In this document: positions 1 to 45,079 of the stretch, one piece after another
Layout: every line of letters starts with the position of its first letter
Position numbering within the stretch: the stretch's first letter is position 1
Origin: Alphaproteobacteria bacterium
GTDB taxonomy: Bacteria; Pseudomonadota; Alphaproteobacteria; G963923945
Length of the DNA: 64,000 nucleotides
Assembly (NCBI GenBank): GCA_965199175.1
Contig: OZ240684.1
Location: 1,058,337-1,122,336 of the forward strand
Reading direction: 5' to 3'
Made by a program: the position numbers and the translations under genes
The notes under the pieces: generated by a model
Database searches by the model: none
What the model saw: only the letters and a program-made list of their open reading frames with translations
Told to the model about the DNA's origin: nothing

Positions 1-497
1 AACAGCCCAGTCTGTCAGACAAAGAATCCTTCCTTGATCTGAGACCCCGCTTACCGGCTGGACCAATACCGGCAGAACAGCAGAAGACAAGAATCACCAG
101 GCCAGAACCACATCCCGACAAGACACTCGACAATCCTGAGAACATCTTTCTTGCTGAACAGGAGAGCCGGGCCCGACTGCAGCAAGCATTGGCACAAATC
201 CAAAATCCCACCAATGATCTCAACATGATTAGGCAAAACGAAACCGGACAAAACAAGCCGCTCAGTCAACCGGAACAAAAACCAGTATCTGATCCTCAGC
301 GTGCTGAATTCTTCAGACGACAAAGGGAGATACAGCAAAAACGCAAACACATGCTCGACCCCAACCAACCATCTCTGCTCAATCTGGCACCTCCGGGTTC
401 TGAACTGGCCCGGATTCTCGAGGAGAGAAAACAGAAACTGGCAAAGGAAAAACGGAAATCGCTGCGCGCCAACGCCAACAATACTGCTGTTGCCTGA
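1..497 (+). CDS. 5'-truncated (window edge) duplicate of the C-terminal Q/P/K-rich region of the 3494-4585 protein
   Basis: Positions 1-840 are ~98% identical to 4087-4930. The reading frame is open from the window edge to a TGA at 495-497 (ORF 189-497 lies within it). Confidence 0.5.
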   Translation, partial: QPSLSDKESFLDLRPRLPAGPIPAEQQKTRITRPEPHPDKTLDNPENIFLAEQESRARLQQALAQIQNPTNDLNMIRQNETGQNKPLSQPEQKPVSDPQRAEFFRRQREIQQKRKHMLDPNQPSLLNLAPPGSELARILEERKQKLAKEKRKSLRANANNTAVA

Positions 498-810
498 ACC
501 GGTCTCTTGCTGAGAATATACGATGCCGGTGCAGGCCACCAGCATCGTATGAATCTGGCAACACCGGGAAATATGCAAAGCCAGGCCAGGCCACCAGCAT
601 CATATGAATCTGGCAACACCGGGAAAGACAACTCCTTGCCAACAACCAGCCCCTTTTTTCTGTCAATTCCTTGCTCTGGTTCTGGTGGCCGTACCGGTAC
701 AGGGACTGACCAACCCTGGCCCGTCACAGGCACCATGGGCTGGATGTTTTTATTCTTTTATTCCTTTAGTTTTCTCTGGCTTCAACGTCACAAACCCTCA
801 ACATCCGGGT

Positions 811-865
811 TGGTTGCGGGGGCAGGATTTGAACCAGCACCCTCCTGGTTATGAGGCTCAAGGTA
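811..865 (-). pseudogene. tRNA-Met-like 3'-half remnant (att-like partial tRNA copy)
   Basis: The reverse complement reads ...CTCATAACC...GGTTCAAATCCTGCCCCCGCAACCA, matching the anticodon loop, T-arm and acceptor 3' strand of the intact tRNA-fMet at 4857-4933. The 5' half is unrelated, so no cloverleaf forms. Confidence 0.5.
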
Positions 866-1062
866 TCAAGCTGAGGTTCTAAAACCCGGCCAAGCGGAAT
901 TTTCTGTATTTTCTGTTTCGGCACATCCTGAAGAGGTGAATAAAACCTTGACGTTGCGGAGGGATACAAACATATACTATTTGTAATTTTCTGGCCTGGC
1001 ATCTTCATTGACGACGGATATTCATCAACTCTGTCAAAGTCATAAAATCCTCGAAGATTACA

Positions 1063-3351
1063 ATGATCACTCTCCGGGAAGATCACAATTCTGCCCCGGA
1101 AAAATCCGCAAAGGACCCTTATCTTCCCCAAACACCCGAACAAATAAGGGATGAAAGAATGATTGCCTCAGATAACCGATATACCCACCAACGCCGTGCC
1201 GGGTCGTTCTGCTCCCGGCTGGTTCTATGCTGCCTGGCTGTGTTCTGGCTGATCCCCCCGGCAGGGGCGGATAGCCCGGCGACAAATGATACCGATGCGA
1301 TTGATATCTGTCGCTATAACTCGGAGAGCCTTGAGGATTTAAGAGACCTGGTCAAAGCCAGAGCATTGGGAAAAACACTGTCTGAACTGGCGCACGCACT
1401 CAGTAATGATCCCGACCAGCTCCTGGCTGAGTGGGAAAAACCTGAAATAAAAATCGACGAACGTCTTCATAATCTGGGCAAAATTCCATTTGGTCATATC
1501 TATATTCACCGTGTTTTTTGCCCACAAGGATTTGGTAATCAAAATGTCTGGTTTTTCGATATTTTTGAGAATGAGGACGGTATTATCAGGAGTGCCCACA
1601 CCCAACTTTTTTATAATGATCAAAATTTTGCGATGCGTAATGAAAGCATCAACGCCAACCACTATCTCTCTGAGGATTGGGTTGTGAAGGCCGTTGCCAG
1701 CATGGCGGAAGCCCGCTTGTATAACCGCGAACAAATGCGTGAAGAAATGATCGCCGGTGGTTTCTGGCTCAATCGATCCTGCATCACCGCCGGGACGGTG
1801 ACCGATAATTTTGTCATCCGCCCTCTTTCACCCGATAATATGTTCGTTCTTATTAGCTTTTATCATATTCCGGATCCTCCTCCCCATGCCGCGATTACTT
1901 TTGCCAGACCTTCCGAAGAATTCCTGAATGTAAAAAAGGACAACAACGAATGCAGCCATGATGCAAGAACATATGGTCGGCAATCATCGGCTTTCTTCTT
2001 AGAAAATTACCCGGAGAGTTGGATCGCAAAAGCGATCAAATACAAAAGGGAACAAAAACGTCAGAAAAAACAACGTACATCGGAAAATGTTGCATTTCTT
2101 CGATCCCTAACCCCCATAAGGACCGTAGCCAATTCGATGCTCATTAGTCTCTGCGGCTATGATGTGGAAAACTTCGACGATCTTGATGCCCTGGTTCAGG
2201 CCAGGGGGATTGGGGCAACACTGCCGGAACTGGCCCGTGTTCTCAGTAAGGATCCGGCCGATACCCTGGCCTACTGGGAAGAAACCAATAAACCCCTTAG
2301 TGATCAACTTCGGGAATTGAGTGGGGTGACAACCGGACGACTTTACGAAATTGGTCAGGGATGTCGTCAAGAATCCGGGCTTATTGATGTTTGGTGGTTC
2401 CGGATCATTAAAAACCAAGACGGGGTAGTGGCATGGATTGAGACCACTCTTCGCTACGATGATCATAAAAACCCTAAAATATCCGATGATCTGACAGGCA
2501 GTCCAAAACCCACCAGTGATCCGTCCACCAAGGCCGAAAATGATCCGGTCCATGAGACCTCAGCAGACAGCATAGCCGGTGATCTGATTGATCTGTGTCG
2601 CTATGGGTCTCAGAGTTTTGATGACCTGGCGGCTCTGGTCAAAGCCAGAGGGTTGGGGAAAAAACTGGTGGCACTGGCCCATGCCCTCAGTGAGGATCCC
2701 GATCAACTCCTGGCCGACTGGCACCAACACAACCGGCCAGTTGATCCGGAGATTCAGGAAGTGACCGGGATTATCCCCGGACGGCTCTATCGGTTTGTCC
2801 AACACTGCCCGCAGGCATTTGATAATTACAATATCTGGTCTTTCCATATCTTAGAAAATGAGGGTGGTCGGGTGAAACAGATTGATCCGTATCTTTTCTA
2901 TGATCGTGATCAGAACTTTGCCATGCGCAATGAAGCCATCAATGCGGCCCGCTATGCCACCCCTAAGGGGGTTGTTCAGGCTGTCACCAGCCTGGCTGAG
3001 GCCCGTTCCTACAGCCGGGAGGACATGCGTAAGACCATGAATAACGGTGGCTTTTGGCTCAACGGGTCTTGTGAGACCATTGAGATACTCAGAGATAACT
3101 TTGTAGCACCGTATTCATCTCCCAATAGTTTGGTTGGTCTGCATGGCTACCCATCCACTCCCTGGGATCAGTATCCACATGCGGCAGTAGTGTTTTCCCG
3201 ATCTTCGGGAGAGTTGATGAAGGTCCACACAGCCCCTGATGTTGATCACCGGGAATGCCGCTTGAACAACGATACAATGGAACAACAAGGCAGAGAATTT
3301 TTTAAAAAAACCTACCCGGATAGTTGGATAGTTAAAAAAATGGTTCAGTGA
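1063..3351 (+). CDS. Large secreted hypothetical protein with three internal ~230-aa repeat modules
   Basis: 762-aa ORF. A hydrophobic signal-like segment (LVLCCLAVFWLIPPAGA) follows Met33, which is an alternative start at 1159. Three modules each begin D-x-I-D-L/I-C-R-Y-x-S-x-S-x-x-D-L-x-x-L-V-K/Q-A-R-x-L/I-G-K/A-x-L and continue through LAHALSxDPDQLLAxW to FAMRNE and GGFWLN motifs. I recognise no family. Confidence 0.6.
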   Translation: MITLREDHNSAPEKSAKDPYLPQTPEQIRDERMIASDNRYTHQRRAGSFCSRLVLCCLAVFWLIPPAGADSPATNDTDAIDICRYNSESLEDLRDLVKARALGKTLSELAHALSNDPDQLLAEWEKPEIKIDERLHNLGKIPFGHIYIHRVFCPQGFGNQNVWFFDIFENEDGIIRSAHTQLFYNDQNFAMRNESINANHYLSEDWVVKAVASMAEARLYNREQMREEMIAGGFWLNRSCITAGTVTDNFVIRPLSPDNMFVLISFYHIPDPPPHAAITFARPSEEFLNVKKDNNECSHDARTYGRQSSAFFLENYPESWIAKAIKYKREQKRQKKQRTSENVAFLRSLTPIRTVANSMLISLCGYDVENFDDLDALVQARGIGATLPELARVLSKDPADTLAYWEETNKPLSDQLRELSGVTTGRLYEIGQGCRQESGLIDVWWFRIIKNQDGVVAWIETTLRYDDHKNPKISDDLTGSPKPTSDPSTKAENDPVHETSADSIAGDLIDLCRYGSQSFDDLAALVKARGLGKKLVALAHALSEDPDQLLADWHQHNRPVDPEIQEVTGIIPGRLYRFVQHCPQAFDNYNIWSFHILENEGGRVKQIDPYLFYDRDQNFAMRNEAINAARYATPKGVVQAVTSLAEARSYSREDMRKTMNNGGFWLNGSCETIEILRDNFVAPYSSPNSLVGLHGYPSTPWDQYPHAAVVFSRSSGELMKVHTAPDVDHRECRLNNDTMEQQGREFFKKTYPDSWIVKKMVQ

Positions 3352-3493
3352 TCTCCGGGTTCAGAAACCCGGGACTCATGATCTGAATATGCACCAACAC
3401 CATAGGGAGGGAATCAATCAACAAAACAAACAAAATATCAATAACAGCCCCAACCATCACCCGAAAACCAGAATTACAAGGAAAGGAAATATC

Positions 3494-4585
3494 ATGGCTG
3501 AAATACGAATCGAGGGACGCGAAGTCAAAATGGGGAAAAAAGATGGAAATAATATATTCGACGCCGGACATTTATATCTGGTTTATGTCGATGACGATGG
3601 CAAGGAAACTATTATCGGCGGGGGACCAAGTGATAATCCATTGACCAATGTAAACGCCACTCTTGATGTCATAATAGATTTTCCAATCCAGCTTTCACAA
3701 GAGAAATGGGACGGGAAAGACATAGAGGTCAGACGTCAAAAACGAGGAAGCATTACTCTTGATTTGGGCGACCGAGACCCAGAAGAAGTTTGGCAAGAAA
3801 TGCTGGTTGCTGCGAAAAAAATTGGTGATGCGAAAATTGATTACGATATACGTGGCCCCAATAGCAATACTCTGATTGCCGCCGTGCTCAATCATGTTGG
3901 AATTACGAACCTCAAGCTGCTGCCCCCAGTGGAAAGAGTCGATGGAAGCTGGGTTAATGCCCCCTATCCCGGTACTCGTCACGAAACCGTTACAGAGCTA
4001 ATGGAAAAAGCCGAGTTATCGCCCCCCCAGGGCCAGGACAACCAGCAAAACCCGGAAACCGGTAGAGATCAGCAGTTCCCAAAAAGAAAACAGCCCAGTC
4101 TATCAGACAAAGAATCCTTCCTTGATCTGAGACCCCGCTTACCGGCTGGACCAATACCGGCAGAACAGCAGAAGACAAGAATCACCAGGCCAGAACCACA
4201 TCCCGACAAGACACTCGACAATCCTGAGAACATCTTTCTTGCTGAACAGGAGAGCCGGGCCCGACTGCAGCAAGCATTGGCACAAATCCAAAATCCCACC
4301 AATGATCTCAACATGATTAGGCAAAACGAAACCGGACAAAACAAGCCGCTCAGTCAACCGGAACAAAAACCAGTATCTGATCCTCAGCGTGCTGAATTCT
4401 TCAGACGACAAAGGGAGATACAGCAAAAACGCAAACACATGCTCGACCCCAACCAGCCATCTCTGCTCAATCTGGCACCTCCGGGTTCTGAACTGGCCCG
4501 GATTCTTGAGGAGAGAAAACAGAAACTGGCAAAGGAAAAACGGAAATCGCTGCGCGCCAACACCAACAATACTGCTGTTGCCTGA
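3494..4585 (+). CDS. Hypothetical protein with ~190-aa N-terminal globular domain and Q/P/K-rich low-complexity C-terminus
   Basis: ATG at 3494 follows AGGAAAGGAAAT (Shine-Dalgarno-like); the ORF track gives 3389-4585. The C-terminal 165 aa are duplicated at window positions 1-497. Confidence 0.55.
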   Translation: MAEIRIEGREVKMGKKDGNNIFDAGHLYLVYVDDDGKETIIGGGPSDNPLTNVNATLDVIIDFPIQLSQEKWDGKDIEVRRQKRGSITLDLGDRDPEEVWQEMLVAAKKIGDAKIDYDIRGPNSNTLIAAVLNHVGITNLKLLPPVERVDGSWVNAPYPGTRHETVTELMEKAELSPPQGQDNQQNPETGRDQQFPKRKQPSLSDKESFLDLRPRLPAGPIPAEQQKTRITRPEPHPDKTLDNPENIFLAEQESRARLQQALAQIQNPTNDLNMIRQNETGQNKPLSQPEQKPVSDPQRAEFFRRQREIQQKRKHMLDPNQPSLLNLAPPGSELARILEERKQKLAKEKRKSLRANTNNTAVA

Positions 4586-4854
4586 ACCGGCCTCTTGCTG
4601 AGAACATACGATGCCGGTCGCTCGCACCGGCATCGTATAGATCGGCAACCCCCGGGAAAGACAACTCCTTGCCAACAACCAGCCCTTTTTTCTGTCAATT
4701 CCTTGCTCTGGTTCTGGTGGCCGTACCGGTACAGGGACTGACCAACCCCGGCGTCACAGGCATCATGGGTTGGACGTTCTTACTGTCTTACTGTCTTATT
4801 CTTTTATTCTCTTAGTTTTCTCTGGCTTCAACGTCACAAACCCTCAACGTCCGG

Positions 4855-4933
<79 letters not shown>

Positions 4934-5192
4934 TCAATCAAGGATTCTTCTTGTGACACGCATGATGCCATGATGATCTCTGATGCATGTGTCGGCTCAG
5001 GTACCATTCTGGCAAGCGTCTGTCCAGAAAACTTTGCAGAAAAATATCAATGTATTACCAATATCTGCAACAGGATGCCCCGAACACGGAGGGCTGGCTT
5101 GTGTGTTCATTTATTCTTAAAATGAGAGGAAGAGTTGTATCCGGTTCTGGCATTCATTGCCCGGTTTTTCTTGATCAAAGAGTTTATAAACC

Positions 5193-6776
5193 ATGCGGCA
5201 CTTCGTTCCTTCTCTGCGTGCGCTTCTTACCCTCAATGCGTTGATTGCTGTCCTGGCTCTCCTGACTGCCGCTTGTCTGGCTCTGTGGGGAGTTTATACC
5301 TTCAGCAATTACCATAAACGTGCTTCCCATTCCTACGAACAGCTTGCTCTTGCCATGAGTCTGGAGACGAATATCGGCTTTTTTCTGATCACTGAGATCA
5401 AGCAATTTGTTGATCCGGCCAACCCGTCAGCTGAGGTAACTGAAATCCAGAAAATTGAGCAAAACCTATCTGCATTGATCCAAACCATTGATGAGGAAAT
5501 CAATTTCCTGGATGGGGAAAGACAAAAAGCCGAAGAACAGGCCGAGTATCAGACTGTGCATGTCATTGACAGTCTGTTTCAAAAAATACGGCGCACCATG
5601 CGTAAGGAACGTCTTCGGGCCGAAGTATCTGACCGAGCGGAAGTCGTGCATGACGTCATCAATAACATTGTTTCTGTCGATTATCGGCGTTTGAGCGAAA
5701 TTGTTCACAGATTGGTTGCTGAGGAACGTCTCGAAGTAAAAGAGTCTGTCGAAAACATCCGTTTACTGGGCTGGAATATTCTCTTTTTCTCGATCTCGGC
5801 TATCATTTTAACGATGGTGTTTGCCCTGGGTGGGGCCATGGCGACTTACAACGTCTTGATGCGTCCGGTGGCCCAGCTTTCCAAAGGGTCTCAAGCACTG
5901 GCTCAGGGTGATCTTGACCACCGTATTACCATTGCCCGTCCTCCCGAATTTGCAGAACTTGCTGACCGCTTTAATAACATGGCACAGAGAATCTCTTTCC
6001 AGAAAACCCAGTTGGCCGACATCAATCAAGGGTTGGAAAAAATCGTTGCCGAACGAACCCAGGAACTGGCGGAGAAAATCAACCAGCTGGCTAAAATAGA
6101 CGACTCGCGGCGGCTTTTTTTCGCTAAGATTGGCCACGAATTGAGGACGCCGCTCACCGTATTGCTGGGGGAAGCCGATGTAGCATTGAGACGTCTGGAT
6201 TCCGATCCGGCTTTTTATAGGCAAGCTCTGACTCATATCGCCGCCAATGGTGAATTTTTGAAACGCCGTATCAGCGATCTGATTGGCCTTGCCCGTTCAG
6301 AGGATGGGCGAATCGTTCTCGAAAACCGGCCCATGGATTTGGAAACCGTTGTTGACGATGCGGTGCAGGTGGTTCAATCTTTTGCCCATTCCAGCGGTGT
6401 GGTTTTGCAAACCAGCCTCCCTGAACAACCGGTTGTTCTCCAGGGAGACCAGAGTTGGTTGCGACAAAGCATGCTGACATTGATCGACAATGCTGTTAAA
6501 TTTTCTCCTAAAGACGGGGTAGTTGAGATCAGGCTCGAACGTCATCAAACAGCGGCGATAATCGACGTAATTGATCAGGGTTTTGGCGTTCCGGATACTG
6601 ATCTGCATAACGTGTTTGACCCTTATTACCAATCGGCAAATGGCCGGGGCAGCGGGAGTGGTCTTGGGCTTGCCGTGGCTCATTGGGTGGCCAAACATCA
6701 CCAGGGGTGGATAAAGGCCGAAAACCTGACTCCCAGAGGTTTTCGCATTCGAATGGAGCTTCCGCTCAAGCCATGA
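5193..6776 (+). CDS. Membrane sensor histidine kinase (HAMP-HisKA-HATPase)
   Basis: N-terminal TM segment, HAMP-like region, H-box IGHELRTPL, and N/G-box motifs (DNAVKFS, GSGLGL). Confidence 0.85.
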   Translation: MRHFVPSLRALLTLNALIAVLALLTAACLALWGVYTFSNYHKRASHSYEQLALAMSLETNIGFFLITEIKQFVDPANPSAEVTEIQKIEQNLSALIQTIDEEINFLDGERQKAEEQAEYQTVHVIDSLFQKIRRTMRKERLRAEVSDRAEVVHDVINNIVSVDYRRLSEIVHRLVAEERLEVKESVENIRLLGWNILFFSISAIILTMVFALGGAMATYNVLMRPVAQLSKGSQALAQGDLDHRITIARPPEFAELADRFNNMAQRISFQKTQLADINQGLEKIVAERTQELAEKINQLAKIDDSRRLFFAKIGHELRTPLTVLLGEADVALRRLDSDPAFYRQALTHIAANGEFLKRRISDLIGLARSEDGRIVLENRPMDLETVVDDAVQVVQSFAHSSGVVLQTSLPEQPVVLQGDQSWLRQSMLTLIDNAVKFSPKDGVVEIRLERHQTAAIIDVIDQGFGVPDTDLHNVFDPYYQSANGRGSGSGLGLAVAHWVAKHHQGWIKAENLTPRGFRIRMELPLKP

Positions 6777-6916
6777 AAATTCTCGTTGTTAAAGATGACG
6801 TTGGCGTCAGACGATTGATTGAACAGGGTCTGCATGTTGAGGGATATGATGTCAACATCTCTGCAGTGGCCAGACGGCCCTCAAACCCTGGAATTATTCG
6901 CCAATGTCTTGATTGA
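6773..6916 (+). pseudogene. Truncated OmpR-family response regulator (receiver N-terminus only, 47 aa)
   Basis: MKILVVKDDVGVRRLIEQGL... begins at an ATG overlapping the kinase stop (ATGA), but a stop follows after 47 codons. Confidence 0.5.
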
Positions 6917-7087
6917 TGCCCATCCCCGGCATGCTGAATTTGAAAAAGATGGTTCCTCTGTTTGGGTCACGTCTGAAGTCGGTGCTATGGCCTGAGTGAT
7001 TGAGGCCGCAACCTAAAAAATGGTCAGGAAAATTTGTTTCGAAATTCCCGGTATAAAAATTCCCGGTATAAAACCAGAGTTAATCCA

Positions 7088-7366
7088 ACCTACAGGAATG
7101 CGTTTCAGTAAAGATGGTCAATGCGCTTTCGTTGCCCCTGGTCCCTCTGAGCACATTACAGTTATTGATACACCAGCCATGAGTTCCAGATGATATCCTG
7201 GTTGGTCAACGACCCTGGCATATCGAAATACATCCAGATGGCTCAAAGCTCTATGTTGCCAACGGAATGACCAATGACATGACCGTGATTGATGTGCGTA
7301 TTTTGAAAGCCGAATGTTGGGTTCCGGTCAGACGTCTGCCCTGGGGGGTCGCCATCATTCCCTGAG
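7088..7366 (+). pseudogene. Frameshifted remnants of a YVTN-type beta-propeller repeat protein
   Basis: Fragments FSKDGQCAFVAPGPSEHITVIDT and HPDGSKLYVANGMTNDMTVIDV in different frames match the ~40-aa YVTN beta-propeller repeat. No intact ORF. Confidence 0.4.
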
Positions 7367-7459
7367 AAGATCGAATCACCCTGGCATAGTTGACGCCAGG
7401 AATGGCCCCCGGATATTCATTTTGGCAGCAGGATCCGGGAAAATCAAAAAGGGTGTGCT

Positions 7460-7590
7460 CAATCACTGTGCAGGCTTTAAATCATTGATACAGATCTATT
7501 ATTGACACAGATCTATTATTGTCACATAGCAACGTGAGTAAAGTGTCGTGATTTTTTGAACCCCTTGCGGCGACAATTTCCTATACTGAA
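7460..7590 (+). repeat. Copy A of a ~125-bp direct repeat flanking the hydrogenase island (with internal 17-bp duplication)
   Basis: caatcactgtgcaggctttaaatcattgatacagatctatt...tgtcacatagcaacg...attttttgaa...cttgcggcgacaatt..cc.tac..gaa is ~85% identical to 25076-25190. Confidence 0.8.
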
Positions 7591-7855
7591 CTCACTTCCA
7601 GCAGTCAATTTTCTAAGCTTCAATGTCTGCCCCGAACCGATCTTGAGCAGGCTGTTTGGTCAATGGGATATGGACCCCGACTCATTGGGGTCAAAATCGA
7701 AATCGCGCCGGACTCTATTTAACCGGGATATTTTCGGACGATGATAACTGTGGATGACAGATGAAAGAGTGATGGTCGATTCGTAAATTTTATTTGCATA
7801 TTGAAAAGAAACTTAGCAGGATTGAACAAGACGTGATGATTAAAAAAATCCGCAT

Positions 7856-9298
7856 GTGACAACACAGAAAACAATTCTCCTGATCTCTGATGATACGGAA
7901 TTTGTAGAGGTCGCGCGTACGGCTTTCTCTCATACCGGCGATTACCGGCTTGTCCTCTGCGCAAACCGACATGCCGCGGCCAATCGTCTTGAGCAGATTG
8001 AGGCGCATCTTCTGATCGCGGATTACGATGTGGAGGATGGCCAGGGCGGCGAGGCACTTTGCGAGGCCAGAATCTCCCATCCTCAAATTCCAAGAATGCT
8101 CATCGCGAGGACAGAAATCGCGGTTACAGATTCAGATATTGTCCGCAGATGTGCTGCTTATTTGTTTTTGTTCAAGCCGGTTATGCCGACACAGTTGGAT
8201 ATTTCGGTTAAACGCGCATTGGAACTGAGCGAATTGTCACGTCGACACCGGTTGTTATCGCGTGAACTCAGAATTTCGATCGATGACGATATATTCGGTG
8301 ATGAGCACAAGATGTCGGTCAAAGGCGGCGTGTCGCAATTTGAGAAACTTGTGTTTGCCAGTCCAAAGATGGCTGAACTGGTTGAAGATGCAAGGCGGGC
8401 CGCTAAAACCGAGTTACCGGTATTGATTCATGGTGAAACAGGGACTGGAAAAGAATTGTTGGCGCGGGCGATACATTACAATTCGCAACGAATGGATTCA
8501 CCGCTTCTGGTTCAAAATTGCGGGGGGATGAGCGATGAAACTCTGCATTCTGAACTTTTTGGCCATCTGCGTGGCGCATTCACCGGAGCTGTTGCGGATC
8601 GTCTGGGTCTCTTTCGGGCCGCCGAAGGCGGGACTGTTTTTTTAGATGAAATCTCAGAAGTATCATCGAATTTTCAGGTCAGCTTGTTGAGGTTTCTCCA
8701 GGAAGGCGAAGTCAAACCTTTGGGATCGGACAAGGTGTCATACTCCAATGTTCGGATTGTCGCAGCATCCAATCGTTCACTGGAAGCAATGGTCGAATCT
8801 GGTGGCTTTCGACGAGATCTTTACTATCGGCTTAAAGGGTTTACCCTCTTAATTCCGCCGCTGCGGGAACGTCCGGAAGACATATCGGTCCTTGCTGAGT
8901 TTTTCCTTGAAAAATACGCAGGGGTTGTTGGTCGCCAGGTCATGGGTATTACGAAAGCTGCATTGGACGCGCTGGCTGCCTATAGATATCCGGGAAATGT
9001 CCGGGAGCTTGAAACAGAACTACAGAGAATGATCGCCGTTGCAGATCAAGGTGGATATATCTCGGAACGCCATTTGTCGCCTTCCATCCGACAAGCGGCA
9101 GCTGCCGGACACACCAATGGACCTCAAGCAATCGAAGGGGCCAATTTGAAAGAAATGGTAGAGAATCTAGAGCGTCAGGTGGTCAGGCAAACGCTGGAAA
9201 AAACACGATGGAATCAAAGCCAGGCGGCTCACATGCTCGGACTTTCCCGGGCTGGTTTGGCCAATAAAATCAAACGCTATAATCTTCAGGCGGAATAG
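7856..9298 (+). CDS. Sigma-54-dependent response regulator (NtrC family; HoxA/HupR-like hydrogenase activator)
   Basis: GTG start. Receiver domain, AAA+ sigma54-interaction domain (GETGTGKE, GAFTGA), and C-terminal Fis-type HTH. Confidence 0.85.
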   Translation: MTTQKTILLISDDTEFVEVARTAFSHTGDYRLVLCANRHAAANRLEQIEAHLLIADYDVEDGQGGEALCEARISHPQIPRMLIARTEIAVTDSDIVRRCAAYLFLFKPVMPTQLDISVKRALELSELSRRHRLLSRELRISIDDDIFGDEHKMSVKGGVSQFEKLVFASPKMAELVEDARRAAKTELPVLIHGETGTGKELLARAIHYNSQRMDSPLLVQNCGGMSDETLHSELFGHLRGAFTGAVADRLGLFRAAEGGTVFLDEISEVSSNFQVSLLRFLQEGEVKPLGSDKVSYSNVRIVAASNRSLEAMVESGGFRRDLYYRLKGFTLLIPPLRERPEDISVLAEFFLEKYAGVVGRQVMGITKAALDALAAYRYPGNVRELETELQRMIAVADQGGYISERHLSPSIRQAAAAGHTNGPQAIEGANLKEMVENLERQVVRQTLEKTRWNQSQAAHMLGLSRAGLANKIKRYNLQAE

Positions 9299-9308
9299 GT
9301 CGTTTCGG

Positions 9309-9542
9309 ATGTCTGAAAATGATGGGACCAAATGCTCCGGGAATATTGTGGGGTTTCCACAGTCACGCACCCGGATTGGACCTTTGCGTCCAGCAAAAGA
9401 CCTTGGTTTATCAAGGTTGTCGCGCCAAGTTGGGTCACATGGAAAAGCCGCTCAAGGTCATTGGTGCAGTCACTGCGAAGGCATTTGGTACAGCTATTTC
9501 CCGGAGTCCGAATGTCCCGTTTGTGGCAACCGGCATGGGTGA
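9309..9542 (+). CDS. Small hypothetical zinc-ribbon protein (C-terminal CxxC...CPxCG, rubredoxin-like)
   Basis: 77-aa ORF with WCSHC...CPVCGN. Three overlapping frames are open here, so coding status is uncertain. Confidence 0.3.
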   Translation: MSENDGTKCSGNIVGFPQSRTRIGPLRPAKDLGLSRLSRQVGSHGKAAQGHWCSHCEGIWYSYFPESECPVCGNRHG

Positions 9543-9672
9543 TCGAAACCTGCTCATTAACTTTACATCTGTAAAGTAAGTTGCATTGCTGTGTTGGGTA
9601 GGGAGGCTGAATTTTAGTGCCTGAATCTCATCAACTTGTTGATATTATGTATAAAAATTTTTGGACTAAAAC

Positions 9673-9689
9673 TGGCATTGTTTTTGCTT
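9673..9689 (+). promoter_or_regulatory. Sigma-54 (-24/-12) promoter upstream of hydrogenase small subunit
   Basis: TGGCATtgtttTTGCTT has GG and GC separated by exactly 10 nt and lies ~140 bp upstream of the hupS start. Two 16-bp direct repeats (aagttagcagacagaa) sit between it and the RBS. Confidence 0.6.
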
Positions 9690-9829
9690 AATATCGTGCT
9701 GTGGATCATACGGTGATTGATAATCCGTTCGAACAAGCAGATGAAAACCAAAACAAAGTTAGCAGACAGAACAAAAAAGTTAGCAGACAGAAAAAGAGAT
9801 AGAGACAGAAAAACGAAGGAGGAAAAAGA

Positions 9830-10792
9830 ATGGCTAATTTATTATGGCTCCAGGGCGGGGCCTGCTCTGGAAACACAATGTCGTTTCTGAATGCCGAGGA
9901 ACCCAGTGCCTGCGATCTTGTCACCGATTTCGGGATCAATGTTCTTTGGCAGCCGTCACTCGGCCTGGAACTCGGAGACGATGTTAAAGCGATACTGCAA
10001 AAATGTATTTCCGGTGATATCCAGCTGGATATTTTCGTTTTTGAAGGGACGGTTATTGACGCCCCCAACGGGACCGGCGAATGGAACCGGTTTTGTGGTC
10101 GGGCAATGAAAGAATGGGTCAAAGAACTTTCAGCAGCGGCTCAATTTGTTGTTGCTATTGGAGACTGTGCTACTTGGGGCGGTATTCCGGCAACCGCGCC
10201 CAATCCTTCGGATTCCAGGGGTCTGCAATTCCTGAAACGCGAGAAAGGTGGTGCCCTTGGGGAAGGGTTCACATCCAAAGCCGGCCTTCCGGTCATCAAT
10301 ATTCCGGGCTGCCCGGCTCACCCCGATTGGGTCACCCAAATTCTGGTGGCGGTTGCGACCGGACGGGCCGGAGACCTGACCCTTGATGAATTCCAGAGGC
10401 CAAAGACATTTTTCTCAAGTTTCACGCAAACTGGTTGTACTCGAAACATGCATTTTGCTTATAAAGTCTCCTCGACAGCGTTTGGCCAGCGTAAAGGCTG
10501 CCTGTTCTATGACCTTGGTTGCCGTGGGCCGATGACTCATAGCCCATGCAACCGGATTCTCTGGAACCGTCAGTCATCGAAAACTCGCGCCGGTATGCCT
10601 TGTCTGGGTTGCACGGAACCTGAGTTCCCGTTTTTTGATTTAGCACCTGGCACAGTCTTTAAAACTCAGACTGTGATGGGCGTACCCAAAGATCTGCCGA
10701 CAGGCGTGGAAAAAACTGGCTATGTAAAATTGACTGCCGCAGCCAAGGGTGCTGCCCCAGCCTGGGCTGAAAAAGACATTTTCGTCGTCTGA
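9830..10792 (+). CDS. hupS: [NiFe]-hydrogenase small subunit, no Tat signal peptide (group 2a-like HupS)
   Basis: Begins directly MANLLWLQGGACSGN. It has the conserved Cys ligands of the proximal, medial and distal FeS clusters. At 320 aa it matches cyanobacterial-type HupS length. RBS GGAGGAAAAAGA precedes the ATG. Confidence 0.9.
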   Translation: MANLLWLQGGACSGNTMSFLNAEEPSACDLVTDFGINVLWQPSLGLELGDDVKAILQKCISGDIQLDIFVFEGTVIDAPNGTGEWNRFCGRAMKEWVKELSAAAQFVVAIGDCATWGGIPATAPNPSDSRGLQFLKREKGGALGEGFTSKAGLPVINIPGCPAHPDWVTQILVAVATGRAGDLTLDEFQRPKTFFSSFTQTGCTRNMHFAYKVSSTAFGQRKGCLFYDLGCRGPMTHSPCNRILWNRQSSKTRAGMPCLGCTEPEFPFFDLAPGTVFKTQTVMGVPKDLPTGVEKTGYVKLTAAAKGAAPAWAEKDIFVV

Positions 10793-10841
10793 AGTCAGTG
10801 AACAAACAAAAGTCAGTGAACAAATAAAGGGAATTTAAACA

Positions 10842-12437
10842 ATGTCAGCAGCAGTTCAAACTCTTGATATTTCTCCTGTCGGGCGCGTTGAAGGCGACCT
10901 TGACGTTCGTGTCGATATTTCGGATGGCGTTGTAACCAATGCCTGGACAAATGCGGAAATGTTCCGCGGCTTTGAAGTCATCTTGAAAGACAAAGACCCC
11001 CAGGCTGGCCTGGTCGTCACGCCCCGCGCCTGTGGCATCTGTGGTGCGTCGCATCTGACATGTGCTGCCTGGGCGTTGGATACAGCCTGGAGCACGACTG
11101 TCCCAAGAAATGCCATTTTGGCCCGCAACCTTGGTCAGATTGTCGAATCGCTTCAGTCTTTGCCCAGGCATCATTACGGCTTGTTCATGATTGATTACAC
11201 GAACAAAAATTACGCCAATTCGGTTTTTTTCGAAGAAGCCGTCAAGCGCTATGCGCCGTTTACCGGTACTTCCTACGAAGCTGGCGTGACGATTTCCGGC
11301 AGACCGGTTGAGATTTATGCTCTGCTCGGTGGGCAGTGGCCGCACTCATCTTACATGGTGCCAGGTGGCGTGATGTGTGCGCCGACTTTGACGGATGTGA
11401 CCCGGGCCTGGTCGATCCTTGAACACTTTCGACGTAACTGGATTGAACCATTATGGCTTGGATGTTCGATGGAGCGGTATGAAAGCATTCAGACATTAGA
11501 AGATTTTGAGGCATGGCTTGATGAACGTCCGGAACATGCGCGTTCAGACCTCGGCCTTTATTGGCGAATGTCCAAAGATATCGGTCTGGATCAATACGGC
11601 AAAGGCCATGGCAAATTCATCACCTGGGGTTATCTGCCCCATGAGGACAAATATCAAAACCCAACCATTGATGCACGCAGCGGCGCGGTCATCATGAAGG
11701 CCGGGGTATATGATGGTGCTTCTGACAGCTTCCAACCGATGGAACAGTCGTTGGCCCGGGAAGATATGATCCATTCCTGGTACGATGAAGGCAATGATAT
11801 TCACCCTTTTGACCGCACAACCAATCCGATTATGAAGAATGAGATTGATCCGGATGGAAAATATTCCTGGTGCACTTCGGTTCGCCACACTGAAAACGGT
11901 CGCCTTGAGGCGGGTCCACTTGCGCGTCGCCTGGTTTCTGGAGGACCGGGTCAGGATTTCCAGCATTCGGACGGCCTGATCCTGGATATGTATCGGAAGA
12001 TGGGTGGTGCTTCGATTATGCTGCGCCATTTCGCACGGATGCATGAACTGTGTATTCTCTACCGCGAAGCTGAGCGTATTCTGCGTGAATTCAAGCTCAA
12101 TGACGAATGGTATATCAAACCAACCGAGAAAGATGGGCGTGGTTGGGGTGCTACGGAGGCAATTCGTGGTGCCCTCTGCCACTGGATTGATGTTGAAGGC
12201 GGTAAGATCAAGAACTATCAGATCATCGCGCCGACCACCTGGAATGTTGGTCCTCGCGCTGAGAACGGCGAACGGGGACCGATCGAAGAGGCACTCATTG
12301 GGACGCCGATTGCCAACTCTTCGGATCCGGTCGAAGTCGGCCATGTGTGTCGGTCCTATGACAGCTGTTTGGTCTGCACCGTCCATGCTCATGATGGCAA
12401 GACAGGCGAAGAGCTTGCGCGGTTTCGTACGGCGTAA
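10842..12437 (+). CDS. hupL: [NiFe]-hydrogenase large subunit with C-terminal extension
   Basis: N-terminal RACGICGASH and C-terminal DSCLVCTVH motifs ligate the Ni-Fe site. About 16 residues follow the final His, which is a substrate for endopeptidase cleavage. 531 aa. Confidence 0.9.
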   Translation: MSAAVQTLDISPVGRVEGDLDVRVDISDGVVTNAWTNAEMFRGFEVILKDKDPQAGLVVTPRACGICGASHLTCAAWALDTAWSTTVPRNAILARNLGQIVESLQSLPRHHYGLFMIDYTNKNYANSVFFEEAVKRYAPFTGTSYEAGVTISGRPVEIYALLGGQWPHSSYMVPGGVMCAPTLTDVTRAWSILEHFRRNWIEPLWLGCSMERYESIQTLEDFEAWLDERPEHARSDLGLYWRMSKDIGLDQYGKGHGKFITWGYLPHEDKYQNPTIDARSGAVIMKAGVYDGASDSFQPMEQSLAREDMIHSWYDEGNDIHPFDRTTNPIMKNEIDPDGKYSWCTSVRHTENGRLEAGPLARRLVSGGPGQDFQHSDGLILDMYRKMGGASIMLRHFARMHELCILYREAERILREFKLNDEWYIKPTEKDGRGWGATEAIRGALCHWIDVEGGKIKNYQIIAPTTWNVGPRAENGERGPIEEALIGTPIANSSDPVEVGHVCRSYDSCLVCTVHAHDGKTGEELARFRTA

Positions 12438-12507
12438 CCAATAAGGGTATGGAGAGTTCCAAACAAAATCCTGATAAAAAATCCGTAGAAACAAAATTGG
12501 GTTAGGT

Positions 12508-12897
12508 GTGGTGGCTTCGATGGTTGGTGATATTTCTGTTGCGGCGGAGTCTTCGGCTTATCGGCAACGTTACGGGGTTTTGCCTTCCGAGGCCGACCAC
12601 GCAACCCTCATGAAGATGATTGAGGATTTATTTAAGGAGGGTCTGGAGACTCAGATTGAGCCATTTCCGAAAACTGACCGGGAATTTGCGGCGATTCTTG
12701 ATGATCTGCGGATGCTTACGCCAGACCAGCTTCGGGAAAAACTGGTGCTTTCCGGATGGCTTCTCAAGCCCCATGGTGAAGATCAGATGCGTTGTCAGGA
12801 ATGCATGTATTTTCTTGTCCATCGTCGCTGGTGCGATCTTCCGGAGTTGAATTTGCCTGCGGAACCGGAATGGTGGTGCAGATTGTGGAGAATTTAG
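12508..12897 (+). CDS. Hypothetical protein, paralog 1, conserved C-terminal 4-Cys motif (hydrogenase-cluster associated)
   Basis: C-terminus QECMYFLVHRRWCDLPELNLPAEPEWWCRLWRI. Paralogous to the next gene. Confidence 0.5.
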   Translation: MVASMVGDISVAAESSAYRQRYGVLPSEADHATLMKMIEDLFKEGLETQIEPFPKTDREFAAILDDLRMLTPDQLREKLVLSGWLLKPHGEDQMRCQECMYFLVHRRWCDLPELNLPAEPEWWCRLWRI

Positions 12898-12907
12898 GAG
12901 AGAGGAA

Positions 12908-13240
12908 GTGTCTGACCAAGCGTCAAGTCCTGAAGACGATGCGTTGCGCGACCATATCGCGGAGACATTGTCTTCGGGGATAGAAACCGAAGTCTGGCCA
13001 CGCGCCGAAACTTCGGAGATGGTTGAGAATATTGTCAAGCGCTTACAAACCGAAGCCAGAGACGACCTGGACAAGAAGCTGATCATCGGCGGTTTCACCG
13101 ACCACATCATCGAAGCCGAAGGATTGGAACAACCCTGTGAGACTTGTATGTATTACTTGGTGCATCGGAAATTTTGCGAATTACCGGAGTTGATGTTGCC
13201 AGTCGAACCGCATTGGTCTTGCAGACTTTGGCGCATTTGA
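12908..13240 (+). CDS. Hypothetical protein, paralog 2, conserved C-terminal 4-Cys motif
   Basis: C-terminus CETCMYYLVHRKFCELPELMLPVEPHWSCRLWRI aligns residue-for-residue with the previous ORF. GTG start. Confidence 0.5.
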   Translation: MSDQASSPEDDALRDHIAETLSSGIETEVWPRAETSEMVENIVKRLQTEARDDLDKKLIIGGFTDHIIEAEGLEQPCETCMYYLVHRKFCELPELMLPVEPHWSCRLWRI

Positions 13241-13716
13241 ATCCGGCGACAGTCATCATCGGTTGCGGCAACCCGAACCGAAGCGATGATGGAGTCGGCC
13301 CCTATGTCGTTTCCTTGCTTCGTGATCGGGATCTTGGTGATCATGTCTCGCTTTATGATGGCGGGACCGATGGTATGGGTGTCATGTACCGGCTGCGGGG
13401 CTTTGAGCGTCTGGTCATCATTGACGCCCGCATGCCTCAGGGGACTCCGGGCGCATTATATGAAGTCCCCGGAGACGTTCTGGAAACGCGTCCGCCACAA
13501 AGTCTCAATCTTCATGATTTCAGATGGGATCATGCTCTTTATGTCGGCCGCCAAATATATGGCACGGCGTTTCCGGATGATGTATCGGTGTTTTTAATTG
13601 AAGCAGCCAATCTTGATCTGGGATTGGAGATCAGCCCACACATTCAGGCGACGGCCTTGAAAGTTGCAGCGCAGATTGAGCATATGGTGACCGCGCGTGA
13701 TGCGGCGGCTATTTAG
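13237..13716 (+). CDS. hupD: Hydrogenase maturation endopeptidase (HybD/HupD family)
   Basis: Motif VIIGCGNPNRSDDGVGPYVV matches the GxGNxxxxDDGxG signature. The proposed TTG start overlaps the upstream stop. An ATG at 13144 in the track would overlap the previous gene by ~100 nt. Confidence 0.75.
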   Translation: MNPATVIIGCGNPNRSDDGVGPYVVSLLRDRDLGDHVSLYDGGTDGMGVMYRLRGFERLVIIDARMPQGTPGALYEVPGDVLETRPPQSLNLHDFRWDHALYVGRQIYGTAFPDDVSVFLIEAANLDLGLEISPHIQATALKVAAQIEHMVTARDAAAI

Positions 13717-13719
13717 GGA

Positions 13720-14031
13720 GTGGCGATGGCGGTGCGTATTGGCGTCCGGGATGGGTCTGTGTATCTCAATCGGCAGACCGTTGAGACGTATTTCCGGCAT
13801 ATTGACGCTGTAATCATTTTGATCCGTGACCAACAGTTGCAGATTCTGCCGGTTCGGCAGATGGCTGCGGGGGGGTGTTTGCTAAAAGTCCGTAATGCGG
13901 TTGGGGACCGGGTGGCGAACAGCCCGGATGTCTTCGCCGAGCACGGGCTTTCGGCTTGGCGTGATGATGATATTGAGGCAGTTTGGTCGGCGACTCTCGG
14001 TGCTCTTGTTGCAGAGATATCCGCATACTAA
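13720..14031 (+). CDS. Hypothetical protein (hydrogenase cluster)
   Basis: 103-aa ORF. RBS GGGAG lies 6 nt upstream of the ATG, immediately after hupD. Confidence 0.35.
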   Translation: MAMAVRIGVRDGSVYLNRQTVETYFRHIDAVIILIRDQQLQILPVRQMAAGGCLLKVRNAVGDRVANSPDVFAEHGLSAWRDDDIEAVWSATLGALVAEISAY

Positions 14032-14132
14032 GTTTACATATTGAAAAACGACTAGACATAATTCGTATAAACGGGTTTACTTTCCTGAGCGTTCATTGTT
14101 AGCGGATCGAAATCCGTTTACGGGAGGAGAGT

Positions 14133-15122
14133 ATGGTCGCGCGCAGCCGTACCGAAGATGAGGTGAATGCGGCCTTAAAGACGGTCGAAGGAAGCGGCGC
14201 ATCGACGCAGGAAAAAGCCGAGATGCTTATGGAAATCGCCATGGGCCTCCAACAAAAGCCCAAAGCTCCGGGTGATCTTCATGCTGCGGTCACTCTCTAT
14301 AAAAGGAGTCTGGAGCAAGCCAGAGACGCAGATTCGCTGCTTCAGGCACGTATTCGTGCGCGCATGGCCACTGCTATGATGGCCATACCTGGCGATACGA
14401 CGCATTTTCTGGAAAGCGCCCGGGGCGAATTGCAGGACGCCCTGGAGATATTACAAACCGAAGGCCTTGATGCAGAAATCGCAGAAGCCGAAATGAATTT
14501 GGGCCTGGTCTTGCAAAACCTTGCAGAAGTTGGCCAGGGCCGCATTCAAGATGCCATATCGGCCTATCAACGTGCCTTAAGGGTCTTTGATAAAGCCAGT
14601 CATCCTGTAGAATTCGCCATTCTGCAAAATAACATCGCAACTGCTTTCCTTTCGATTCCTTTCACTCAGGAGAGTGGTAAGATGCGGGAGGCTCTGGCCG
14701 TGCAGGCATTTGAAGAGGGTTTGAAAGTGGTCAATCTGATTGACCACCCCCGTGAATACGCCATGTTACAGAATAATCTTGGCAACGCTCTTCAGTACGC
14801 TTCGTCAAGCCATCGGGTTGAAAATGGTTTTCGGGCACTGGAGGCTTATGACGAAGCCTTGAAAGTGAGAACATCCCGCGATATGCCGGATGAATATGCC
14901 AACACCATCGCCAATAAGGCAAATTGCCTGGTCAACCTACCTGATGACCCAGAAAACCCTGACACCGGCAATCAGCATCACTTGTCAATAGCCCAGACTC
15001 TCTACAAGGAAGCGCATACGATTTTCGAGAATACCGGAGCACTCGACAAAGCGGCAATGGTGGCCGAAGCCCTGGCGAACCTATCTTCCGAAACCCGTTT
15101 CGGCCAACCCATCGTTCATTGA
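14133..15122 (+). CDS. TPR-like repeat protein (hydrogenase cluster)
   Basis: 329 aa, helical, with repeated A/L/Y-rich ~34-aa units (ALxxYxxAL patterns). Confidence 0.55.
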   Translation: MVARSRTEDEVNAALKTVEGSGASTQEKAEMLMEIAMGLQQKPKAPGDLHAAVTLYKRSLEQARDADSLLQARIRARMATAMMAIPGDTTHFLESARGELQDALEILQTEGLDAEIAEAEMNLGLVLQNLAEVGQGRIQDAISAYQRALRVFDKASHPVEFAILQNNIATAFLSIPFTQESGKMREALAVQAFEEGLKVVNLIDHPREYAMLQNNLGNALQYASSSHRVENGFRALEAYDEALKVRTSRDMPDEYANTIANKANCLVNLPDDPENPDTGNQHHLSIAQTLYKEAHTIFENTGALDKAAMVAEALANLSSETRFGQPIVH

Positions 15123-15346
15123 AGAAAAAAGCCACAGAAGGAGACCTGGCAATGGAACCTCTCATATTCATCCTGGCATTGGTGCTCGGGGTTGCTGCAT
15201 CTATCGGTGCCGGCGTGTTATCGGGTCTTTGGATCGGCAAAGACGCTCTTGGCGGCGAACTTGCCGCCTTTATGGGCGGGCTTTACGGCCTCATGTCCGG
15301 CATCGTCGGCGTCAGCGCCGGTTTGGCCGCTCTATTACTGGTTTAA
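15119..15346 (+). CDS. Small membrane protein (2 predicted TM helices)
   Basis: 75 aa with Gly/Ala-rich hydrophobic segments. Overlaps the upstream stop. Confidence 0.4.
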   Translation: MKKKATEGDLAMEPLIFILALVLGVAASIGAGVLSGLWIGKDALGGELAAFMGGLYGLMSGIVGVSAGLAALLLV

Positions 15347-15357
15347 GGGGGAGTCGG

Positions 15358-15579
15358 ATGTTGAGTATAGCACTGAATTCAGCAAAATTGTTCTTCGCGG
15401 GAAAACTCTTCCAGGATAACAAGAAAGTCTTGCGTCAATTTGCCATTGGTGCCGGGGCTGGGGGAATTGCGACTGTTATCGTTGCTCAATTCACGCCGCT
15501 GTGGCTCGCCGCGATGGCTGGCGGTGCTGTTTGCGGCTTTCTTCAACCAATTTTGTTTAAAGATCTGAAATACGCGTGA
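15358..15579 (+). CDS. Small membrane protein (2 predicted TM helices)
   Basis: ATG follows GGGGGAG. 73 aa with two hydrophobic stretches. Confidence 0.4.
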   Translation: MLSIALNSAKLFFAGKLFQDNKKVLRQFAIGAGAGGIATVIVAQFTPLWLAAMAGGAVCGFLQPILFKDLKYA

Positions 15580-15583
15580 TCCG

Positions 15584-19996: not shown

Positions 19997-20258
19997 AATC
20001 TCTGATCCAGCCAAGAAACTCGCGCTGGTGGACGTATCTGGCGTTCGCCGTGAAGTGAATGTTGCCTGCATCGCCGAAAATAATCCGATTGACGACCTGA
20101 TTGGTGCCTGGGCGTTGATCCATGTCGGGTTTGCGATGTCTCGCATCAATGAGGAGGAAGCCGCCAAGACTCTGGAAGTCCTCAGGATGCTGGGCGAAGC
20201 GCAAGAAGAAATCGAAGCGATGCGCCAAAGCCAGCAGATGCTGGAGCAGACATCATGA
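19965..20258 (+). CDS. hypC: Hydrogenase maturation factor HypC
   Basis: N-terminal MCLGIPGQI signature; 97 aa. Confidence 0.85.
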   Translation: MCLGIPGQIIEISDPAKKLALVDVSGVRREVNVACIAENNPIDDLIGAWALIHVGFAMSRINEEEAAKTLEVLRMLGEAQEEIEAMRQSQQMLEQTS

Positions 20259-22434: not shown

Positions 22435-22441
22435 GATATAT

Positions 22442-25190: not shown

Positions 25191-25331
25191 GTATCATTGA
25201 CATTTCAGGGTAGAATAACCGGATATTTGTTGGGTTTTTTTCTATCATCCTGCTAAATAAGGCTCTCTTTTTGTTTTTATTGATCCTTCTTATCTTTATT
25301 GATCCTTTTTGATTTCTTGTTCTTTTTGATA

Positions 25332-45069: not shown

Positions 45070-45079
45070 AGCGTAAAGG

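Follow-up and report, generated by a model that had tools for sequence, protein, structure and literature searches.

Proteins bearing repeats in toxin (RTX) are exported by type I systems via a C-terminal signal, and in the RTX proteases the enzyme is bound by a Sec-exported periplasmic inhibitor encoded in the adjacent gene (PMC3034196). Effectors of the type IV secretion system X-T4SS have their enzyme domain at the N-terminus and a conserved secretion domain at the C-terminus, with a periplasmic immunity lipoprotein encoded upstream (PMC6759196). We examined a two-gene locus in a 64,000-nucleotide stretch (hereafter, the window; positions 1,058,337 to 1,122,336 of contig OZ240684.1, a 2.07-Mb chromosome) from an Alphaproteobacteria bacterium. 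Its two open reading frames (ORFs), ORF1 and ORF2, encode a predicted exported multi-module protein and a protein lacking a signal peptide, in which a globular N-terminal domain (the head) precedes a low-complexity tail. The logic proposed here for this pair is that of TseH-TsiH and Tae-Tai of the type VI secretion system (T6SS), which combine a cell-envelope hydrolase with an exported immunity protein; in the LapA-type adhesins, an N-terminal retention module is handled by the periplasmic proteins LapG and LapD. We suggest that ORF2 may be a secreted Ser-type papain-like hydrolase or acyl-transferase and ORF1 its cognate periplasmic inhibitor or immunity protein, a reading whose chances we put at about even. 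Both families are uncharacterised and the logic of the system itself is known; to our knowledge, the conserved pairing of an ORF1-type module with such a head has not been described previously.

The locus resembles the AprA-AprI system and PrtSM/PrtA-C with Inh in that, by analogy, the secreted protein would have its catalytic domain at the N-terminus and an RTX/type I part at the C-terminus. As in serralysin-type systems, a Sec-exported partner is predicted to be encoded next door, and one ORF2 relative (L028) bears a serralysin C-terminal RTX domain. However, the head appears papain-like with a Ser, whereas serralysins are zinc metzincins, and the ORF1 module, a 250-residue, two-subdomain unit of apparently new fold that is fused 2.5 times, differs from the 10-kDa beta-barrel of Inh/AprI. 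In contrast to the AprA locus, RTX repeats are absent from ORF2 of the window, and the pair is not flanked by aprDEF-like transporter genes. The X-Tfe/X-Tfi pairs of the X-T4SS share with our locus a variable, here putative, N-terminal enzyme domain, a C-terminus conserved among paralogues, many pairs per genome and an upstream, co-oriented gene for an exported protein (ORF1 has a predicted signal peptide, and some of its relatives have lipobox-like sequences). Unlike in X-Tfe proteins, no XVIPCD was detected in ORF2, as a general Pfam scan of the full protein returned no family at E ≤ 1; the tail is of low complexity and wholly different between related genomes, and distant ORF2 homologues use RTX repeats. 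VirB/VirD4 genes were not found among the scanned ORFs of the window. The pair has architectural features of both the RTX-inhibitor and the X-Tfe/X-Tfi systems and lacks the sequence features that define their families, namely a metzincin domain, RTX repeats in this copy and an XVIPCD.

The T6SS pairs differ in that TseH has a Cys nucleophile and the immunity gene usually lies downstream; there is no sequence similarity, and no T6SS, VgrG or PAAR genes lie near ORF1 and ORF2. The LapA system is alike in that type I/RTX substrates, including giant adhesin-like ones, begin with a folded domain on which a periplasmic protein acts, as ORF1 might here. In contrast to LapA, no LapG (DUF920) or LapD genes are present, the head shows conserved catalytic-type residues on a hydrolase-type fold, and most of its homologues are small.

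In the scheme we propose, ORF2, which lacks a signal peptide, would be synthesised in the cytoplasm. Its head would be an N-terminal hydrolase or acyl-transfer domain of the permuted papain/NlpC-P60 type, using His26, Glu38 and Ser124, with Ser replacing the usual Cys nucleophile. Its C-terminal region would be the export or delivery part, formed in most relatives by RTX repeats and a type I signal and here by a basic, Gln/Pro-rich disordered tail. ORF1 would be exported by Sec to the periplasm, where its disulfide-stabilised modules would bind and neutralise the head, whether the enzyme had leaked out of the secretion channel or had come from sister cells. The pair has been amplified in tandem beside a tRNA-Met gene; recombination holds the copies nearly identical in the tail, the spacer and the 5' part of ORF1, and the diverging heads and module bodies would lead to several distinct enzyme-inhibitor specificities.

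Head and C-terminal region of ORF2

Both ORFs reported in the first-pass annotation are present on the plus strand and match the database proteins P0001 (ORF1) and P0010 (ORF2), although the gene extents given there, which were those of the longest ORFs, need revision at their starts, both of which are probably internal. The longest ORF of ORF2 (3389-4585, plus strand, 398 residues) is identical to P0010 from Met36 onward. The start is likely Met36 at nucleotide 3494, because AAGGAAAGGA precedes this position and all ~35 homologues open with MAEIRIE or a similar N-terminus; from there, ORF2 (3494-4585, plus strand) encodes 363 residues, exactly P0010. Comparison of ORF1 with ORF2 revealed no mutual similarity, and a promoter and terminator scan of window positions 500-5200 gave counts no higher than in shuffled sequence. 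The earlier statement that neither protein could be assigned to a known family agrees with our searches of Pfam, NCBIfam, PADLOC and PDB sequences, in which nothing significant was found and neither protein fell into a characterised housekeeping family.

As had been proposed, ORF2 consists of a globular N-terminal domain and a low-complexity tail. The head (3494-4018, plus strand) comprises residues 1-175 and was not recognised by any profile library searched (Pfam, NCBIfam, PADLOC) or by the PDB sequence search. An AlphaFold2 (AF2) model built from 15 homologues (predicted local distance difference test score, pLDDT, 83; predicted template modelling score, pTM, 0.84) suggests a circularly permuted papain/NlpC-P60-like fold. 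Its closest fold relatives include CLN5, the T6SS effector TseH, the Bacillus cysteine peptidase 3kw0, YiiX, PPPDE/DeSI, Aichivirus 2A and PLAAT4. His26 (3569-3571), Glu38 (3605-3607) and the triplet Asn123-Ser124-Asn125 (Ser124 at 3863-3865), all on the plus strand, were invariant in 15/15 aligned homologues. In the model, His26 lies on strand 25-32, His26 and Glu38 each begin consecutive strands, and Ser124 is the first residue of helix 124-134. Members of the permuted papain-like branch are alpha+beta proteins in which the helix that opens with the nucleophile packs on an antiparallel sheet. The model has two features of such a fold, namely a His preceding the nucleophile position and a predicted helix N-terminus at that position. 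This position is not a Cys in any of the 15 homologues, in which it is Ser124 within an N-S-N motif.

The layout of His26, Glu38 and Ser124 presumably corresponds to H23/H35/C113 of PLAAT/LRAT, a His/His/Cys topology, and we take the motif order to match H...NC(N) of PPPDE, except that a Ser stands where PPPDE has its Cys nucleophile. The head shares its fold class and the order of His and nucleophile with DUF3750, PPPDE/DeSI, LRAT/PLAAT, YiiX/C92 and CLN5. However, none of the PPPDE, LRAT and C92 models matches it: Peptidase_C97/PPPDE, LRAT, Peptidase_C92 and NLPC_P60 were not reported at E ≤ 10 for the 15 head members. DUF3750 (PF12570) matched 4 of the 15 members weakly (best E 0.0023), covering only the NSNT helix (profile positions 97-119 of 128). 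For ORF2 of the window, the DUF3750 match reached 13.5 bits (E 0.12) against a gathering threshold of 25 bits, and all of the scores lie below the Pfam thresholds. DUF3750 is a papain-like family in which a conserved Ser replaces the Cys and whose function is not known (PMC10318531). The head shares this substitution, since Ser124, along with the invariant His26 and Glu38, is conserved where papain has its Cys. Unlike the head, DUF3750 has no known partner. On the model, the head thus appears to be a distant Ser-type member of a known superfamily.

The tail (4019-4582, plus strand, 188 residues) contains 24 Gln, 22 Pro, 18 Arg and 14 Lys, is also rich in Leu and Glu, and has a basic C-terminal segment of 60 residues. 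It contains one copy of P[SP]L[LI][NDK][LIF]. The tails of the three genomes with multi-module ORF1 homologues are otherwise unrelated, and all share this motif in 1-4 copies. In the tails of OZ000551.1 (among P0013-P0018), the motif lies within a tandem repeat of ~27-30 residues with variable copy number.

In all ~35 relatives found, the head is placed at residue 1 without a signal peptide, and in most of them it is followed by RTX nonapeptide repeats (proteins P0020 and P0022-24; loci L014, L017, L019, L027, L028, L030, L032 and L033). Many of the homologues are small RTX proteins of 270-400 residues. The L027 protein reaches 1999 residues with cadherin, Calx-beta and Big_9 domains, and the L033 protein is a giant adhesin-like RTX protein of >1157 residues. 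The earlier suggestion of an effector or toxin is reasonable for ORF2 in view of its papain/NlpC-P60-like head and of the RTX fusions in relatives; the horizontal acquisition that accompanied it was not borne out, as described below. As a separate observation, precomputed Pfam annotation assigns PF26745 'SPM' to the C-terminal part of P0021 (L003, 8001-9599) and of the L015 gene product (5780-7261); the labelled region contains EF-hand-like DxDxDG loops, and the family was not reported in our own Pfam scan.

One other explanation for these architectures is that the head is not an enzyme but a folded plug, kept in the periplasm while a type I system threads out what follows it, be it an RTX or adhesin region or the disordered tail, and that the Sec-exported ORF1 modules capture or regulate this plug. 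The position of the head at residue 1 in every homologue and its presence on the giant adhesin-like proteins of L027 and L033 fit such a tether, the catalytic Cys is missing from the head, and a periplasmic partner would most simply meet a type I substrate whose N-terminus stays in the periplasm. However, a plug needs no invariant His, Glu and Ser at the catalytic-type positions of a hydrolase fold, and neither LapG/LapD-like nor type I transporter genes were found in the window or the fetched loci. Many homologues are, moreover, small and built like RTX enzymes, and the L028 protein carries the serralysin C-terminal domain. We consider the plug unlikely. A new type I-linked tether distinct from LapG/LapD, in which ORF1 catches a periplasmic Ser-type head, the tail with its short linear motifs (in relatives, the RTX or adhesin region) is displayed on the surface, and heads and modules diversify to keep cognate pairing, seems to us highly unlikely.

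ORF1 modules and conservation of the pair

The longest ORF of ORF1 (1063-3351, plus strand) encodes 762 residues, identical to P0001. Its true start is probably Met33 at nucleotide 1159, giving a precursor of 730 residues, because a Shine-Dalgarno-like AAGGGA lies 8-9 nucleotides upstream and the homologues start at the equivalent of Met33 or later. The N-terminus looks like a Sec-type signal peptide (1159-1269, plus strand), with an RR n-region, the hydrophobic core LVLCCLAVFWLIPP and an AGA/DS cleavage motif. Residues 46-68 form the sole hydrophobic segment of the protein, preceded by Arg residues, and homologues have an AWA/GP motif at the equivalent place. The hydrophobic segment noted earlier as signal-peptide-like is present.

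We found that ORF1 consists of two full modules and one half-module, not of three ~230-residue repeats as first described. Module A (1294-2052, residues 78-330) and module C (2578-3348, residues 506-762) each contain N and C subdomains of ~255 residues in total and are 48% identical (E=1e-77). Half-module B (2140-2487, residues 360-475), encoded on the plus strand like the others, has ~115 residues and corresponds to the N subdomain only: it shares 34-39% identity with A and C over ~125 residues, is matched by the module profile at positions ~22-135 only, keeps the first Cys pair, and lacks the NFAMRNE (NF..R.E) and GGFWLN-SC (GGFW..SC) motifs. The sequence motifs quoted in the first-pass annotation are present.

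When 1.84 billion cluster representatives were searched exhaustively with a profile, only 21 proteins related to the ORF1 module were recovered, most of them single-module proteins of 240-320 residues. The family shares the motifs I-x-(L/I)-C-x-Y, C...GN-x-N-x-W, Y-x-D-x-NF-x-x-R-x-E-x-(L/I)N-x-x-RY and GGF...SC. Of the 19 single-module relatives, 16 have a strongly hydrophobic segment at the N-terminus, the others being borderline (P0026), a fragment (P0028) and probably truncated at the start (P0036); several relatives have sequences resembling a lipobox, among them VSGC and FVAC. The family conserves two Cys pairs, and five homologues have lost both members of the second pair. Judged from these hydrophobic N-termini and from Cys pairs that are conserved and lost together, the ORF1 family appears to be extracytoplasmic. 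The same pattern argues for two structural disulfides in an exported protein, and since the second pair is lost as a unit and the protein appears to be exported, the cysteines are probably disulfide-forming, not catalytic. A catalytic role of the ORF1 cysteines was accordingly rejected.

The ORF1 module had no match in Pfam, NCBIfam, PADLOC or PDB sequence searches, and a Pfam scan of ten of its relatives gave a family match for 0/10. The AF2 model of module A was very confident (pLDDT 94.2, pTM 0.89); searched against the PDB, it matched no fold and no enzyme. We regard the module as a putative new family with an undescribed fold combination, unclassified by sequence and, on the basis of this model, by fold. 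The suggestion of a catalytic fold iterated three times is not supported, given the disulfide-like cysteines and the fold without an enzyme match, and ORF1 is better read as a binding, inhibitor or immunity partner.

With the three multi-module genomes counted in, a module gene directly precedes a head gene in ~10 independent lineages: the window, OZ000551.1, L005/L006, L003/L004, L013, L014, L015/L016, L018, L023 and L036, the last seven of which came from six-frame profile searches of the fetched loci. In L003/L004, two single-module genes precede P0021. The gap between module and head genes is 26 nucleotides in L013, 13 in L014 (where the partner is an RTX protein) and 36 in L015/L016. Some modules in the distant pairs, which come from diverse environmental metagenomes, are barely recognisable by sequence. 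The pair is thus conserved in related genomes and far beyond, which supports the view that the two genes are, as judged by gene order, a true functional pair. Enzyme-inhibitor and effector-immunity pairs typically combine a strong but replaceable partner with partners that occur as orphans.

Several observations weigh against our hypothesis of an enzyme with its inhibitor. First, no module gene was detected upstream of ~10 head genes (including L007, L017, L025, L027, L028, L031 and L032), about half of those for which the upstream sequence was long enough, and two module genes (L012; L008-L011) have no head gene nearby. Second, the window ORF2 itself has no RTX repeats (no PF00353 match), and no secretion-system genes were found among the scanned ORFs of the window. 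Third, a mirror-tree check in OZ000551.1, comparing pairwise identities of ORF1 with those of the heads, showed no obvious correlation: ORF1 proteins of 86.6% identity accompany heads of 72.3%, and heads of 80.7% accompany ORF1 proteins of 67.5%. Fourth, a Foldseek search of the head model against the PDB gave nothing significant, with only Aichivirus 2A at low probability, and an hhalign comparison of the head profile with PPPDE 2wp7 was not significant (E 0.44), although it placed NSNT on NCNT. His26, Glu38 and Ser124 are only presumed to lie close together in space, and the replacement of Cys by Ser could mean that the head is a non-catalytic binding domain.

With regard to the genes lacking their usual partner, a gene for another small signal-peptide or transmembrane protein ends 0-38 nucleotides before four of the head genes (L020, L030/L034, L033 and L035), an arrangement that favours the hypothesis. 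The two lone module genes lie on Logan contigs (L008-L011) and on an ENA contig (L012). Among modules found alone, P0041 lies in a bufferin-type cluster with BufA1, MbnB, HvfC_N and DoxX, and P0025 has a resistance-nodulation-division (RND) efflux operon on one side and, on the other, a phage-type integrase with McrBC-like genes beyond it.

If the pair is of effector-immunity type, an enzymatic toxin linked to type I export, together with a periplasmic immunity protein encoded upstream, would be an unusual combination. The Ser-type papain-like, DUF3750-like class, conserved and so far of no known activity, gains here a defined partner, a likely export route and a set of invariant residues. The ORF1 module, as a putative new family and fold with no PDB neighbour, is a candidate specific inhibitor or immunity domain.

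Tandem amplification beside tRNA-Met

The pair in the window is the last unit of a tandem array that closes at a tRNA-Met (CAT) gene (4857-4933, minus strand). Positions 1 to ~870 of the window duplicate 4089 to ~4920, comprising a partner 3' end, the spacer and a degraded 3' part of tRNA-Met. The partner fragment (1-497, plus strand) consists of the last 164 codons and the stop codon of the preceding paralogous gene, and its DNA is 99% identical to 4089-4585. The window begins within the previous tandem copy, because this left copy encodes exactly the C-terminus of P0012. The tRNA-Met remnant (808-873, minus strand) aligns to 4854-4920 with several mismatches and was not called by ARAGORN or Rfam. 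The whole 2,069,867-bp contig contains three ORF1 paralogues (P0001-3) and three partners (P0010-12). In OZ000551.1, a related metagenome-assembled genome (MAG) of an Alphaproteobacteria bacterium of 2.10 Mb, there are five consecutive pairs (733+471, 617+411, 724+401, 706+432 and 740+402 residues), and the array likewise closes at a minus-strand tRNA-Met; no tRNA remnants were found between its copies. A third assembly has one pair (800+402 residues), located elsewhere.

The spacer after the partner gene (517-658 and 4605-4691) contains a palindromic element, ATACGATGCCGGTG...CACCAGCATCGTAT. Its left copy is one unit of ~55 nucleotides longer than the right, so that this small repeat varies between tandem units.

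The first-pass annotation had described the locus as a duplicated, tRNA-associated island that is richer in A+T than its flanks and was acquired horizontally. The tRNA-Met adjacency and the duplication stand, and the designation as an island is not supported. In such a scenario, the two ORFs would be unrelated cargo genes of a mobile tRNA-linked island and their duplication a by-product of integration. The cassette indeed adjoins the tRNA-Met gene, and a direct repeat of the tRNA 3' end, as expected at the far border of an island, is present, since 808-873 resembles 4854-4920. This repeat lies between tandem copies, however, and unequal crossing-over explains it equally well. A single-module relative (P0025) also adjoins an integrase. 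By contrast, the repeat unit in the window (857-4856) holds only ORF1 and ORF2, with no integrase, transposase or other mobility gene, which is consistent with unequal crossing-over of the gene pair alone. OZ000551.1 also has the array at this tRNA-Met, with no tRNA remnants, and of nine further loci checked (L003-L016), only one had a tRNA nearby (a tRNA-Leu near L005). The pairing of the two genes recurs in other genomes, while their adjacency to tRNA genes is mostly absent. The claimed A+T enrichment proved marginal: the GC content of the cassette is 48.2%, versus 50.4% in the 5-37 kb flank and 51.7% in the whole window, a difference of ~2 points that is within the spread of neighbouring genes (PhaC, 47.6%). 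With the composition barely deviant, no integrase, a locus syntenic in a relative and no tRNA at most other loci, horizontal acquisition is not supported, and we judge the mobile island the least probable of the readings considered here. In our reading, the locus arose by tandem amplification of a chromosomal gene pair and is not an acquired island.

The copies within each array have not diverged evenly. Tails of paralogues are 96-98% identical in the window genome and 88-96% in OZ000551.1, whereas heads are only 48-59% and 63-81% identical, respectively. In OZ000551.1, the synonymous divergence (dS) was 0.15-0.27 for the tails and 0.34-0.86 for the heads. The tails are younger than the heads, because their synonymous divergence is lower, and this therefore indicates gene conversion or unequal crossing-over, not constraint alone. 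In the window, the near-identity does not end at the stop codon of ORF2 but continues into the spacer; on the other side, it takes in the first ~135 residues of ORF1, over which P0001 and P0002 are 87-100% identical. Identity among the ORF1 paralogues is 67-87%, and the ORF1 bodies are mosaics of patches with 90-100% and 30-40% identity. In the variable patches, the proportions of nonsynonymous (pN) and synonymous (pS) differences were about equal, while in the cores pN was well below pS. Across both genes, omega was 0.2-0.5, indicating purifying selection, and both genes are therefore functional. Gene-wide positive selection was considered and is not supported by these omega values, pN ~ pS being confined to local patches. 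The arrays exemplify export tails, as we take them to be, that are kept identical by concerted evolution while heads and putative inhibitors diversify.

Diversification of this kind could also arise if the pair were a host-directed effector pair of a symbiont, with the tail motifs contacting the host, ORF1 acting as a co-effector or surface protein, and the array diversifying under host pressure. Consistent with this, the multi-copy arrays occur in alphaproteobacterial MAG chromosomes of ~2.1 Mb, the paralogues are mosaic and hypervariable, the disordered tails of all three genomes share P[SP]L[LI][NDK][LIF] in 1-4 copies, and the closest fold relatives of the head include the eukaryote-type proteins CLN5, PPPDE/DeSI and PLAAT. 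However, there is no evidence of host association for these MAGs, and the hydrogenase with its regulators, the polyhydroxyalkanoate (PHA) synthase and the two-component systems indicate a metabolism of free-living type. The distant pairs occur in diverse environmental metagenomes, and a host-directed role would leave unexplained why an exported module gene is so tightly coupled (13-36 nucleotides) to a head gene without a signal peptide. We therefore consider it decidedly unlikely, and prefer the hypothesis of a secreted enzyme with its periplasmic inhibitor or immunity protein.

Other features of the window

Directly after the tRNA-Met gene, region 5193-24215 encodes a HAMP histidine kinase, a sigma-54 activator, the small and large subunits of a [NiFe] hydrogenase (9830-12437) and the hydrogenase maturation proteins HypF, HypD, HypE-like and HypB-like. 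This region looks like a hydrogen-sensing or hydrogen-oxidising regulon, and because of it the organism is apparently not a strongly reduced symbiont. PhaC is another neighbour.

A block of phage-like structural genes with a higher GC content (38400-55500, GC 55.8%) lies beside a tRNA-Gln gene (37999-38072, minus strand). It contains a Mu-type portal (40512-42071), a Mu F-like protein with a fused PBECR2 nuclease domain (42068-43375), a tape measure protein (46916-49768) and a GpJ-like tip protein (53121-55478), as well as a tail tube and a tail-collar protein, and probably represents a tRNA-adjacent prophage or tail-like element. Three ORFs had no Pfam match at E ≤ 1e-5, namely 26538-27983 (481 residues), 36762-37799 (minus strand, 345 residues) and 39028-40515 (495 residues). 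ARAGORN also called a 90-nucleotide tRNA-His with anticodon ATG at 26297-26386, where Rfam reported no tRNA at the gathering score; the call overlaps the 3' end of an aspartate-semialdehyde dehydrogenase-like ORF (25299-26390) and is probably false.

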